Positions 544 through 4,647 of a stretch of 4,647 bases of DNA are shown piece after piece. The translations under genes and the position numbers were made by a program. Within the stretch, counting starts at the first letter, position 1. Each line of letters opens with the position of its first letter. The stretch comes from a virus. Taxonomy: Duplodnaviria; Heunggongvirae; Uroviricota; Caudoviricetes. The notes below the pieces were generated by a model. The model searched no databases. It was given only the letters and a program-made list of their open reading frames with translations, and had not been told where the DNA came from. Location of the stretch: IMG/VR virus record IMGVR_UViG_2657245521_000007. One strand, written 5' to 3'.

Positions 544-1005
544 CTATCTGCACTGCTCATTAATATACTTCTGGGTTCCTTCCAGTTGTTTTTGCATAGT
601 GATCAGCCTCTCTCTGAGGGTGAAATAATCCCGTTCAGCGGTGTCTGCCAGTCGGGGGGAGGCTGCATTATCCACGCCGGAGGCGGTGGTGGCTTCACGC
701 ACTGACTGACAGACTGCTTTGATGTGCAACCGACGACGACCAGCGGCAACATCATCACGCAGAGCATCATTTTCAGCTTTCGCATCAGCTAACTCCTTCG
801 TGTATTTTGCATCGAGCGCAGCAACATCACGCTGACGCATCTGCATGTCAGTAATTGCCACGTTCGCCAGCTTCAGTTCTCTGGCATTTTTGTCGCGCTG
901 GGCTTTGTAGGTAATGGCGTTATCACGGTAATGATTAACAGCCCATGACAGGCAGACGATGATGCAGATGAGCAGAGCGGAGATAATCGCGGTTAATCTG
1001 CTCAT
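544..1005 (-). CDS. Rz: Rz spanin, inner-membrane subunit (i-spanin)
   Basis: 153-aa ORF with an N-terminal transmembrane segment and a charged, coiled-coil-like periplasmic domain. Length and sequence match lambda Rz as recalled. ATGA overlap with the R stop. Confidence 0.9.
603..785 (-). CDS. Rz1: Rz1 spanin, outer-membrane lipoprotein subunit (o-spanin), embedded in the +1 frame of Rz
   Basis: 60-aa ORF entirely inside Rz in a different frame. It has a signal peptide with lipobox VVGC and a proline-rich mature part (PPPPP, PPP). A strong Shine-Dalgarno AAGGAG sits 7 nt upstream of the ATG. Matches lambda Rz1 as recalled. Confidence 0.85.
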
Positions 1006-1478
1006 ACCTCAATCTCTCTGACCGTTCCGCCTGCTTCTTTGAATTTTGCAATCAAACTGTCAACCTTATGCTCGAACTGACCATAACCAGCACCCGGCAG
1101 TGAAGCCCAGATATTGCTGCAACGGTCGATTGCCTGACGAATATCACCGCGATCAATCATCGGTAAAGCGCCACGCTCTTTAATCTGCTGCAATGCCACT
1201 GCGTCCTGGCTATTGGGGGAAAAGTCTTTCAAACCAAGCTGTTTACAGTAAGCATCCCACCACCGGGAAAGAATCTGGTAGCGTCCAGCAGCCGTTGATT
1301 TAAGTTTTGGGTTTAGCGTGACAAGTTTGCGAGGATGATCGGAGTAATCAGTGAATAGCTCACCACCTACAATAACGTCGTAGCCGTGATTGCGGGTTGG
1401 CTGTCGCCCGTTATCCGTTCCTTCTGACCACGCCAACATATCGAGGAAAGCTTTACGCTGAGGATTAAGATTTAGCAT
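1002..1478 (-). CDS. R: Endolysin, lambda R-type lytic transglycosylase
   Basis: 158-aa ORF. From residue 7 onward ([20 protein letters not shown]..., [19 protein letters not shown]...) it is near-identical to lambda R as recalled, with a divergent N-terminus. It sits between holin and Rz as in lambda. Confidence 0.92.
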
Positions 1479-1782
1479 TTTTCACCCCTGTCAGTCGTTC
1501 CCAGAAGTATGTCAGTGCAACCGAACCCATCGCACCACTAATCCCCGCTGTCGCGAGAATCATGTAAATACTGAATCCACTTTCGATACTGTTCAGGCCA
1601 CCAATAACACCGGTGAATCCCGACACCACTATCTGAGCCAAAGCATTTATCCAGCTCCACGTTGCTTTACTCTGCTTCACATCTATCAGGTAGCGGACCA
1701 GACCGCCCCAACCTGCGATGATCAGCAAAACGAGCCAGAACGCTCCGGCAAGGCTCTCTTTTTCGTGCATATGAATAGCCAA
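1465..1782 (-). CDS. Holin (three predicted transmembrane segments, class I topology; not lambda S-like in sequence)
   Basis: Small ORF immediately upstream of the endolysin, overlapping it by 14 nt. It has three hydrophobic segments (about residues 10-32, 42-64, 70-95) and a charged C-terminal tail ([11 protein letters not shown]). The ORF-track start at 1782 is TTG; an in-frame ATG lies at 1770 (MHEKESL...), so the true start is ambiguous. Confidence 0.75.
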   Translation of the reverse strand: MAIHMHEKESLAGAFWLVLLIIAGWGGLVRYLIDVKQSKATWSWINALAQIVVSGFTGVIGGLNSIESGFSIYMILATAGISGAMGSVALTYFWERLTGVKNAKS

Positions 1783-1884: not shown

Positions 1885-1910
1885 AATAAAAAAGCCAGCA
1901 TGTAGCTGGC
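1885..1910 (-). terminator. Intrinsic terminator, minus strand (second of two in the Q-S spacer)
   Basis: Minus-strand RNA reads GCCAGC-UACAU-GCUGGC (6-bp stem, 5-nt loop) followed directly by UUUUUUAUU. Stem at plus 1894-1910, A-run at 1888-1893. Confidence 0.45.
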
Positions 1911-1987: not shown

Positions 1988-2022
1988 AGAAACAGAAAAG
2001 CCCAAGGCTTTAAACCTCGGGC
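1988..2022 (-). terminator. Intrinsic terminator, minus strand (first of two in the Q-S spacer; tR'-like)
   Basis: Minus-strand RNA reads GCCCGAGG-UUUAAAG-CCUUGGGC (8-bp stem including one G.U pair) followed by UUUUCUGUUUCU. It lies about 70 nt downstream of the Q-like stop codon. Confidence 0.4.
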
Positions 2023-2079
2023 TTGAATTTGGATTACTGCCAGTGCGTACAACATTGGCAAAATATCAGATTTACATAA

Positions 2080-2108
2080 AATATATGATTTTTAATCCAG
2101 TTTTGCAA
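2080..2108 (-). promoter_or_regulatory. Candidate sigma-70 late promoter (pR'-like) overlapping the 3' end of the Q-like gene
   Basis: On the minus strand, TTGCAA (-35, plus 2103-2108), a 17-nt spacer, then TATATT (-10, plus 2080-2085). Its position just upstream of the two terminators and the lysis genes mirrors lambda pR'/qut/tR'. Hexamer match only; not tested. Confidence 0.3.
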
Positions 2109-2781
2109 TATCTTGCTGTGAAAATGTGGTCTTTTGTTTTGAACGTGTTTTCGTTAAAAGCAATAAAGCTTGGCTATCAAGCTGTAGAAAAATGTGCTTC
2201 ATTGCAACCCAGCGTTCAGTAAATGTCTCAGACCAGTTTTTTGATGTCACTCCCACCAGTGATGCCAACTCCTGGTATTCATAGGTCTTACGCCCTGCCA
2301 GCTCGTTCTTCACATCCTGTGCCGCCAGCCAGATCAACTTCTTCAAACGTTCCAGTGTCTTACCTGCAATTTTCCTGGTACCCAACAGAGTCTTAAACTC
2401 GCTCCATGCCCACTGCGTTATGGTGACCTGATGTTCCCAGCGAACACTTTCGCTGTAACTCCACAGCAACCACGCTTTCTGATGTTCTTCGAGAGACAGA
2501 ACCGCGCGGCGCCATGATGATGTTGAGAACTCGATCGGACTGACCAGGGCAATGGATGAGCCTTTCGCCCGTGACTGCTTACCGGGTATCGGCGGATTAT
2601 CCAGCGTTATTAACCTGCCGGTCACTTCATCCAGAATGCGCGGTTTCTTTCGTTTGTATGTACCGGTATCAAATTGCGCATGCTCCTGCCAGGCCACCAA
2701 CTGCCCTTTCGTCGCACCACTCAGATCGGCGGTGGCCACCATGAGCTGCTCGCGAACAAACTGTAAATATTGGGTATTCAT
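2092..2781 (-). CDS. Putative late-gene antiterminator (Q-like), family unassigned
   Basis: 229-aa ORF in the position Q occupies in lambdoid phages: directly downstream of rusA/ylcG and upstream of a promoter-terminator spacer and the lysis cassette. ATGA overlap with the ylcG stop. The sequence is not lambda Q (no cysteines, so no zinc finger; Trp-rich). The call is by position and size, not by recognised homology. Confidence 0.55.
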   Translation of the reverse strand: MNTQYLQFVREQLMVATADLSGATKGQLVAWQEHAQFDTGTYKRKKPRILDEVTGRLITLDNPPIPGKQSRAKGSSIALVSPIEFSTSSWRRAVLSLEEHQKAWLLWSYSESVRWEHQVTITQWAWSEFKTLLGTRKIAGKTLERLKKLIWLAAQDVKNELAGRKTYEYQELASLVGVTSKNWSETFTERWVAMKHIFLQLDSQALLLLTKTRSKQKTTFSQQDIAKLD

Positions 2782-2918
2782 GCGGCCGCTCCTTTCAGTG
2801 TTTTGGCGTAATTTTTCAGTATTCGGTAATCAGTCACGACAGAACCGGAAAACCGGTACAACCGCAGGCGCATCCAGCGAAGGCGGAGGTGTTCTGTGAT
2901 ATAAGATTCAAACGTCAT
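2778..2918 (-). CDS. ylcG: Small protein YlcG-like (46 aa), not in the ORF track
   Basis: My translation of the minus strand gives [50 protein letters not shown] overlap with the rusA stop (ATG at 2918-2916) and ATGA overlap with the Q-like start. Size and position match ylcG of the E. coli DLP12 prophage (between rusA and the Q gene). Confidence 0.5.
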
Positions 2919-3277
2919 TCGCCCTCCAGTTCTGTAATGGTCAGCTCCAGCTTCCCGCCTTTAACGATCGGCATCTTCACAACGCGGTAATCAACAACCT
3001 GCGCATCATCCAGCCAGAAACCTGCTTTAGTAAGTGCGTCAAAAGCGGCTTTTTGCAGATTATCCAGGTCACGGCGACGGCGATCCGGCATGTGGCACTC
3101 AATGCGGATTTTCACTGGCATAGCCAGGCCGATATCCAGCATGGAGCCTTTGATGATTCGGGCGACGTTATCGCGGTATGCTTGCCCCTCTGCGCTGATG
3201 TGCGTGCGCCCGCGATTATGGCGGTAATAGCGATTATTGCTCGGAGGCCAGGGTAATGTGATGCTGTAGGTATTCAC
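2915..3277 (-). CDS. rusA: RusA Holliday-junction resolvase (crossover junction endodeoxyribonuclease)
   Basis: 120-aa ORF starting [24 protein letters not shown]..., near-identical to E. coli prophage RusA as recalled. ATGA overlap with the ybcO stop. Confidence 0.93.
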
Positions 3278-3564
3278 GCCTTAATAACCCCCTCTTTCAG
3301 CCAGATAACCTGTGTTCTCGCCATACCTTCCAGCGCGCATTCTTTTGCATATCCAGCGTCAACAAAATGCGTGCGACGGTCGATCTCGTCGTGACAGGCA
3401 GAACATGCAATGGTGGCAATAAGGTCTGGCAGTTTAATACCGGTGCCGCACAATCCAGCCAGCCGGATATGTGCCAGTACAGACGTTTCAGAATTGCCAT
3501 TACATACGCCAGGGATTCTTACCTGGCATTCCCGACCACGCGCTGCTTTTCTCAAATCAGCCAT
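3274..3564 (-). CDS. ybcO: YbcO-like DUF1364 protein (Cys-rich, putative metal-binding nuclease)
   Basis: The ORF-track start at 3603 is a TTG. The in-frame ATG at 3564 ([14 protein letters not shown]...) is preceded by a strong Shine-Dalgarno AAGGAGGAG and gives 96 aa, the size of DLP12 YbcO. Conserved cysteines: CQVRIPGVC and CSACH. Confidence 0.85.
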
Positions 3565-3727
3565 GACTCCTCCTTGCTGCCAGTCGCAACCATTTTTTAT
3601 CAACCAGGCTGGCGGTATATCCGAGCAGTGTTGGTATTTCGGATGGCTTCAGCTCAGGCTTACGCTTACGACGATTTGGTACTCTGTAGATGTGTCCGTT
3701 CATGACACGAATAAGCGGTGTAGCCAT
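3557..3727 (-). CDS. ninE: NinE-like small protein (56 aa), not in the ORF track
   Basis: My translation of the minus strand gives [56 protein letters not shown], matching lambdoid NinE as recalled. The ATG overlaps the ybcN stop (TAATG) and the 3' end overlaps the ybcO start by 8 nt. Confidence 0.75.
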   Translation of the reverse strand: MATPLIRVMNGHIYRVPNRRKRKPELKPSEIPTLLGYTASLVDKKWLRLAARRSHG

Positions 3728-4182
3728 TACGCCTCCTGCTTGTCGCGCAGCAGCTGGAACTCGCAGCTCTGCGGAATAGTCAGGTTGCAGCCAATATTCA
3801 TCGCCCAGGCTTCAACCTTACACAGGAAGACATACATCTCTCCGGTATCAAGATCGGAGGTATGGCGTAACGACTGGATAGTAGTGATTTCGCCGGTTAC
3901 GACATCAACCAGGTCCTTGGTTTCATAACCGAGGTATGTGTGTTTGAGAGCATCTTTTACCCATGCTGCGGTAGCGAACGATTTCCCCCTGCTGATGAGG
4001 TATTCACTGATTTCGCTGTACCACATATGGCTGAGTGCATTCTGGGAAAGACTGCGTTTCTCTCGCCACGGTTTAAGCACCATGCGAAAGCATTTGCCTT
4101 CCTCCAGATAAGGCTGGATCTGCTGGCCGATAGCGGTGAAGTTGCCGCGATGTAATTTGATGCCGTCTTGTGAGAGGTTCAC
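3727..4182 (-). CDS. ybcN: YbcN-like DUF1367 protein (reported DNA base-flipping protein)
   Basis: 151-aa ORF starting [19 protein letters not shown]..., matching DLP12 YbcN as recalled. The start codon is GTG at 4182-4180, preceded by Shine-Dalgarno GGAGGT. Confidence 0.88.
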
Positions 4183-4280
4183 GCTTCACCTCCGCAGAGC
4201 TCAAACGCTAGATGCAAAGAATTGCAGGTGCATTTCTGCATCTGTGAAGGGAGAAGAGAGTTTGGATTGTATGTGCGCAT
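4179..4280 (-). CDS. ylcH: Small ORF, YlcH-like (33 aa), not in the ORF track
   Basis: Minus-strand ATG at 4280-4278 with GGGGA 6 nt upstream; translation [33 protein letters not shown]; stop TGA overlaps the ybcN GTG start (GTGA). Size and position (directly upstream of ybcN) match ylcH of DLP12. Support is weak because the ORF is short. Confidence 0.4.
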
Positions 4281-4303
4281 AAACGTCCCCGTTTAGCGCA
4301 GAA

Positions 4304-4332
4304 GTCACCGGAGTTGTTCAGGCTCCGGTGAC
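4304..4332. terminator. Perfect 10-bp stem-loop in the 22-bp gap between the rusA operon and the IS2 end
   Basis: GTCACCGGAG-TTGTTCAGG-CTCCGGTGAC (10-bp perfect stem, 9-nt loop). On the plus strand it is followed by AU-rich ATAATTATG; on the minus strand by UUCUG. It could be a nin-region tR-type terminator or a protein-binding palindrome. Confidence 0.3.
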
Positions 4333-4354
4333 ATAATTATGCCGTGTTGATTTC

Positions 4355-4647
4355 TAGACTGGCCCCCTGAATCTCCAGACAACCAGTATCACTTAAATAA
4401 GTGATAGTCTTAATACTAGTTTTTAGACTAGTCATTGGAGAACAGATGATTGATGTCTTAGGGCCGGAGAAACGCAGACGGCGTACCACACAGGAAAAGA
4501 TCGCAATTGTTCAGCAGAGCTTTGAACCGGGGATGACGGTCTCCCTCGTTGCCCGGCAACATGGTGTAGCAGCCAGCCAGTTATTTCTCTGGCGTAAGCA
4601 ATACCAGGAAGGAAGTCTTACTGCTGTCGCCGCCGGAGAACAGGTTG
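4355..4647 (+). mobile_element. IS2 insertion sequence (IS3 family), orfA-proximal end, continuing beyond the right window edge
   Basis: Terminal sequence TAGACTGGCCCCCTGAATCTCCAGACAACC... followed by the IS2 orfA leader and ATG, matching the IS2 end as recalled. The element boundary is uncertain by a few bp. Only about 290 bp of the 1.3-kb element is in the window. Confidence 0.9.
4446..4647 (+). CDS. insC: IS2 transposase OrfA (InsC), 5' part; CDS continues beyond the window
   Basis: Translation [67 protein letters not shown] matches IS2 InsC as recalled (helix-turn-helix region). Shine-Dalgarno GGAG lies 6 nt upstream of the ATG. Confidence 0.92.

Follow-up and report, generated by a model that had tools for sequence, protein, structure and literature searches.

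The window analysed here is a 4,647-nucleotide stretch of DNA from a tailed-phage record in IMG/VR (IMGVR_UViG_2657245521_000007). Its minus strand carries ybcN, ninE, ybcO, rusA, ylcG, a Q gene, a 309-nt spacer and genes for a holin, a GH24 lysozyme and Rz/Rz1, after which bor lies on the plus strand (Table 1). An earlier sequence-only reading had placed a 229-aa ORF where a lambdoid Q antiterminator should be, after rusA-ylcG and before the spacer and lysis genes, and the gene order confirms this position. The ORF begins with an ATG that overlaps the stop codon of ylcG (ATGA), with GGAG 8-11 nt upstream of the start, and rusA and ylcG are translationally coupled to Q. The same order occurs as rus-orf45-Q in the phage 82 record (X92588.1) and is also found in PhiR47_2.

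The lysis genes take their labels from the RefSeq annotation of a 99.9% identical region in strain 7CC and from Pfam labels on identical contigs. These genes (544..1782, minus strand) would be under Q control. Two starts are possible for the holin: a TTG at 1782 (MAIHMHEKE..., 105 aa) and an ATG at 1770 (MHEKE..., 101 aa), the latter being RefSeq's choice. This dual start resembles the holin/antiholin arrangement of lambda S.

Table 1. Genes and regulatory elements around Q (positions are those of the window)
Feature	Position	Strand	Basis or remark
rusA	2915-3277	(-)	ORF; 7CC annotation
ylcG	2778-2918	(-)	ORF; 7CC annotation
Q gene, phage 82 type (almost certain)	2092..2781	(-)	229 aa, Pfam PF06323
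PR' -35 TTGCAA	2103..2108	(-)	inside last Q codons; invariant in 7 Q82-family phage cassettes
17-nt promoter spacer AACTGGATTAAAAATCA, candidate QBE	2086..2102	(-)	contains Q stop codon TAA
PR' -10 TATATT	2080..2085	(-)	promoter scan; cassette alignment
Putative transcript start AAATC...	+1 ~2073	(-)	inferred TSS
TG +6/+7, extended -10-like	2068-2067	(-)	read from sequence
-10-like TATTTT, +9 to +14	2065-2060	(-)	part of sigma70-dependent pause element
GCC +15-17 (discriminator)	2059-2057	(-)	read from sequence
Predicted pause +25/+26	2049/2048	(-)	U at +25
tR'-like intrinsic terminator	1989..2024 (hairpin 2024-1998)	(-)	12-bp stem, 3-nt loop, U-rich tail
Second terminator-like hairpin, GCCAGCTACATGCTGGC then TTTTTTATT	1885..1910 (hairpin 1910-1894)	(-)	terminator scan
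Holin	1465-1770, alternative TTG start 1782	(-)	ORF
GH24 lysozyme	1002-1478	(-)	ORF
Rz	544-1005	(-)	ORF
Rz1, embedded in Rz	603-785	(-)	ORF

Prophage context

The prophage that carries Q looks like a defective element of the DLP12 type. Positions 93-1004 and 2777-4354 match K-12 DLP12 (locus L003) at 94-97%, and the intervening 1005-2776 has no DNA match there. In K-12 this interval is occupied by quuD, nmpC (interrupted by IS5), essD and rrrD. With matching flanks and an unmatched centre, the 82-type module has therefore taken the place of quuD-nmpC-essD-rrrD in a mosaic exchange, with breakpoints at the ylcG/Q and lysozyme/Rz boundaries. Many E. coli contigs encode an identical Q protein, set in the standard DLP12 surroundings ybcL-ybcM...bor-ybcV.

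Both ends of the window depart from this standard context. Positions 4355-4647 are the left end of an IS2 (inverted repeat TAGACTGGCCCCCTGAATCTCC...; orfA start ATGATTGATGTC at 4446), inserted upstream of ylcH/ybcN, some 170 bp before the nin-region genes, where the prophages of strain 7CC and K-12 continue into ybcM. The insertion may sever the nin-Q operon from its upstream promoter. At the other end, positions 1-89 are a 100% match to sequence present in all E. coli genomes, namely the 3' end of dusB, the intergenic stretch that follows and 11 bases from the start of fis. They are joined, with 3 bp of overlap (ACA, 87-89), to prophage DNA that lies downstream of bor. This junction occurs in none of 5426 complete E. 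coli genomes, and an exact search of one genome per species also returned none. Either the strain has undergone a rearrangement of its own that truncates fis, or the assembly is chimeric here. With IS2 on one flank and the odd dusB/fis junction on the other, the upstream signals for expression of Q may no longer be intact.

Family membership of the Q protein

The sole Pfam match of the Q protein is PF06323 (Phage_antiter_Q), at 323.4 bits against a cut-off of 25. The match is full-length, spanning Q residues 4-220 and profile positions 1-217 of 220. In PHROG the protein matches phrog_304, 'anti-termination protein Q-like' (E 5.9e-108), and a profile search of NCBIfam gave no match. Lambdoid Q proteins comprise three families, namely Q21 (PF06530), lambda Q (PF03589) and Q82 (PF06323) (PMC9388147, PMC7171158). 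Alignment with phage 82 Q (82Q or Q82; CAA63332.1, UniProt REGQ_BP82) gives 216 identical residues of 229 (94%), without gaps and at E 1e-163, and phage 82 Q itself scores 317.5 bits on PF06323. Further, window positions 2092-4354 align at 92.9% DNA identity with everything in X92588.1, which holds orf33, orf151, orf56, orf96, rus, orf45 and Q; the genes upstream of Q are the same in both.

From these similarities, the ORF is almost certainly a phage 82-type Q, the antiterminator for late-gene transcription in a DLP12/phage 82-like lambdoid prophage. As a protein type it is ordinary and already known, being in essence phage 82 Q. The sequence-only reading was right to see in it the prophage's Q antiterminator, and the profile-HMM comparison with Q families that it proposed settles the family, PF06323 being matched and PF03589 and PF06530 not. 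It went astray in setting the protein apart from the 82 type. Its alternative of a divergent antiterminator also fails. The identical sequence already bears the name 'bacteriophage antitermination protein Q' at NCBI. A reading as a new Q family was considered and rejected.

The composition that had drawn attention to the protein is shared with its archetype. It contains no cysteine, as had been observed, and 10 tryptophans (at 31, 90, 104, 107, 115, 124, 126, 151, 183 and 191) rather than the eleven or so first counted. Approximate E. coli proteome frequencies are 1.53% for tryptophan and 1.16% for cysteine. Measured against these, tryptophan is enriched (10 in 229 residues, 3.5 expected, binomial P ~0.003), which upholds the description as Trp-rich, and the absence of cysteine is unremarkable (2.7 expected, P ~0.07). 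The holin, YlcG and NinE proteins of the same window likewise have none. Since phage 82 Q also has 229 residues, no cysteine and 10 tryptophans, this composition is simply that of Q82.

The window's Q differs from Q82 in being located in a chromosomal DLP12-type prophage and in 13 substitutions. All of these lie at residues 8-83 and 204-224, nine of them in the N-terminal 80 residues, and residues 84-203 are identical. Against Q82 the window's Q has a dN/dS of 0.12, and with five other phage homologues the values are 0.10-0.20. With its differences from Q82 confined to the first 83 residues and the C-terminal tail, this natural allele could be of use in structure-function work.

Full-length PF06323 homologues extend from PhiR47_2 (94.8% identity to the window's Q) and phage 434 (86%) through Gifsy-1 AntQ (70%) to N15 gp40 (~25%). 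All four share W90 R91 R92 A93, W104, W126, Q155, W183 and W191. Expression of Gifsy-1 AntQ disturbs termination and has a toxic effect (PMC4825925). The Q gene of N15 lies after cro. Our family alignment holds 56 members at 21-88% identity to the query, assembled from three database searches. Its invariant columns are A16, W90, R91, R92, A93, W104, W126, Q155, W183, W191, L206 and R213, and five of the ten tryptophans are therefore invariant. There is no conserved cysteine column among the 56 members. Close relatives have 0-2 cysteines, and the distant Q82-family clades, unlike the window's Q, have 3-10, which are unaligned and not conserved.

The other two families can be set aside. QuuD of K-12 (127 aa) belongs to the Q21 family, with 179 bits on PF06530. 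The window's Q has no Pfam match to PF06530 and no similarity to QuuD by BLASTP or by comparison of the 56-sequence profile, and a Q21-family reading was rejected on these grounds. Consequently, the sequence-only reading's treatment of 82 and the DLP12 QuuD as a single type does not hold. It had also suggested a QuuQ-like affiliation. QuuQ/YdfT of K-12 is a PF03589 protein with a cysteine-rich DnaJ-type zinc motif (CXXCXGXG) and is not similar to the window's Q (BLASTP only E 5.6; hhalign probability of the 56-sequence family profile 0.35%). Nor is any sequence similarity to lambda Q (PF03589; PDB 4mo1) detectable, PF03589 remaining unmatched in Pfam even at E <= 1. The lambda-Q zinc finger is absent from the window's Q because the protein has no cysteine, as had been pointed out. 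A PF03589 member that had merely lost its zinc finger would be a conceivable origin of such a protein. We regard this as extremely improbable, given the missing PF03589 match, the negligible scores against QuuQ, which retains its zinc motif, and a Q82 family without any conserved cysteine column. Membership of the lambda Q family is refuted, and any relationship is at most very remote, at the level of the fold.

The late promoter region and the proposed action of Q

A promoter scan identified TTGCAA-17-TATATT at 2108-2080 (-), with near-consensus spacing. The PR' region includes the sequence elements AACTGGATTAAAA, in the spacer, and TGATATTTT. For a spacer, the 17 nt between the hexamers are unusually conserved across seven phages, and the Q-binding element (QBE) is known to sit between the -35 and -10 elements (PMC4914094), which makes this spacer the candidate QBE. 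We aligned the corresponding regions of PhiR47_2, 434, PPompW, KO-TP1, CobraSix and Gifsy-1, which reveals a conserved cassette, TTGCAAAACTGGATTAAAA..CATATA.TT.ATG.AAATCTGATAT. Each aligned cassette is then followed by its own, different terminator hairpin. The cassette lies directly after Q in PhiR47_2 and 434; in Gifsy-1, isrK-orf45-anrP separates antQ from it. These cis elements therefore travel with Q82-family genes.

The region also matches what is published on the phage 82 pR'. There, the -10-like element of the pause is nearer consensus than that of lambda and has an extended -10, with GCC at +15-17, a pause at +25/26 and U at +25 (PMC5001585); the lambda pause, in contrast, is at +16/17 (PMC5001585). 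We placed +1 by aligning GCC. With the start set in this way, the -10 hexamer occupies -12 to -7, while TG and the U at +25 fall into place independently. The segment 2108-2048 (-) fits every published 82 pR' descriptor. The comparison is with text descriptions and not base by base, as X92588.1 extends no further than the stop codon of Q. The start, pause and QBE positions given for the window are thus putative. A full-text search of the literature for TGATATTTTGCC returned unrelated papers alone.

Downstream of PR', the two terminators that the sequence-only reading had described are present as terminator-like hairpins, and the scan gave six terminator-like sites where 0.6 were expected in shuffled sequence. 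From PR' to the first, tR'-like hairpin the predicted leader RNA is about 80-86 nt long, and its fold from +1 to the tail has -27.6 kcal/mol (z -4.05). The second hairpin also forms in the RNA fold of 1783-1990.

Phage 82 Q, which is experimentally characterised, offers a model for events at this locus. It engages the sigma70-paused complex at +25 in a QBE-dependent and NusA-stimulated manner, contacts the beta-flap and shields about 10 extra nt of RNA (PMC4914094). By analogy, RNA polymerase with sigma70 would start at a constitutive PR', whose -35 lies in the last codons of Q. Re-binding of sigma70 to the extended -10-like element (+6 to +14) would be followed by a pause of the complex at about +25. 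With its C-terminal helix-turn-helix, Q would bind the QBE of the promoter spacer, and it would contact the paused complex at the beta-flap/RNA-exit region, helped by NusA. It would then travel with the polymerase, making it resistant to pauses as well as intrinsic terminators. In the absence of Q, transcripts would stop at the 2024-1998 hairpin and yield a leader of about 80 nt; in its presence, the polymerase would read through both hairpins into the holin, lysozyme and Rz/Rz1 genes. The window's own copy of Q would thus probably be an active antiterminator, and the locus may be annotated as the Q82-type late-gene switch of a DLP12/82-like prophage.

The gene could instead be an inactive relic of a cryptic prophage, intact in appearance but with nothing left to control. 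The DLP12-type locus is defective in K-12, the IS2 at 4355 lies just upstream of the nin-region genes, and the window has the abnormal join to dusB/fis DNA at its left end. An intact Q coding sequence alone does not prove expression in its host. However, the ORF is full length with a dN/dS of 0.12 against Q82, its residues 84-203 are those of the active Q82, and no damage is seen in PR', the pause element, the terminators or any of the four lysis genes. Further, PhiR47_2, deposited as a complete phage genome, has the 94.8% identical Q together with a 98.6% identical spacer. On this balance we consider a dead remnant unlikely, and a working phage 82-type antiterminator is preferred.

Predicted fold and the leader RNA

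Of the three Q families, only Q82 lacks a solved structure, and such a structure has been named a priority (PMC9388147). A phmmer search of the Q protein against all PDB sequences found no match at E <= 10, and therefore no solved Q82-family structure was available for sequence comparison. An AlphaFold2 model built from the family alignment has a mean pLDDT of 76. It consists of a confident helical core at residues 82-220 (pLDDT ~90), with a C-terminal helix-turn-helix around 169-190 (helices 169-176 and 180 onward), and of 80 N-terminal residues, 23-78 among them, that are of low confidence. Its best fold matches are the antiterminators lambda Q (4mo1) and Pseudomonas AlpA (PDB 7xya/7xyb). 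The comparison with solved Q structures that the sequence-only reading had proposed thus yields a fold-level resemblance to lambda Q and not membership of its family.

A helix-turn-helix would also suit an activator or sigma-like factor of the late promoter, and the annotation of the 434 genome labels its homologue 'transcriptional activator/anti-terminator'. This is scarcely credible as an alternative to antitermination. The 94% identical archetype has been established by experiment as an antiterminator, with a paused elongation complex as its target (PMC4914094, PMC5001585), and a strong terminator directly follows a promoter whose spacing is near consensus. Sigma factors are not the best fold matches of the model, which are lambda Q and AlpA; in Foldseek the ECF sigma chain 5zx2_F comes only 31st, at E 3.6.

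We tentatively speculate, with doubts that slightly outweigh our confidence, that the three supposedly unrelated Q families are divergent homologues, the zinc-free, Trp-rich Q82 type having its helical core and C-terminal helix-turn-helix in common with lambda Q and AlpA. The invariant Trp/Arg motif (W90 R91 R92, W104, W126, W183, W191) would then have a structural or RNA-polymerase-contact role, and the constitutive PR' leader would be an isrJ-type Hfq-binding small RNA. The structural part of this proposal was foreshadowed by AlphaFold comparisons (PMC9371919), and even if true, shared homology would add modestly to published knowledge.

The Rfam family isrJ (RF01393, a Salmonella Gifsy-1 'Hfq binding RNA') coincides with the PR'-to-terminator leader of Q82-type late operons. 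In Gifsy-1 it scores 100 bits exactly at the conserved PR' cassette (L006:2034-2108). Matches of 63 bits each lie directly after Q in Klebsiella phage KO-TP1 (L012:2206-2282) and Enterobacter phage CobraSix (L013:2206-2279). The match in the window, at 1997-2076 (-), has 30.4 bits and is below the threshold of 37, because conservation is limited to the 5' part with the pause element. Through this coincidence with the leader, IsrJ seems to be for the 82 type what 6S RNA is for lambda. In the literature searched, IsrJ is described as constitutively expressed, and a link to the Q82-type PR' leader was not found. The stretch between antQ and PR' in Gifsy-1 also holds Rfam matches to isrK, C4 antisense RNA and its a1/b1 targets, and isrI lies further downstream (L006:1185-1383 and 2604-2701). 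Several Salmonella 'island sRNAs' therefore cluster around a Q82-type late control region.
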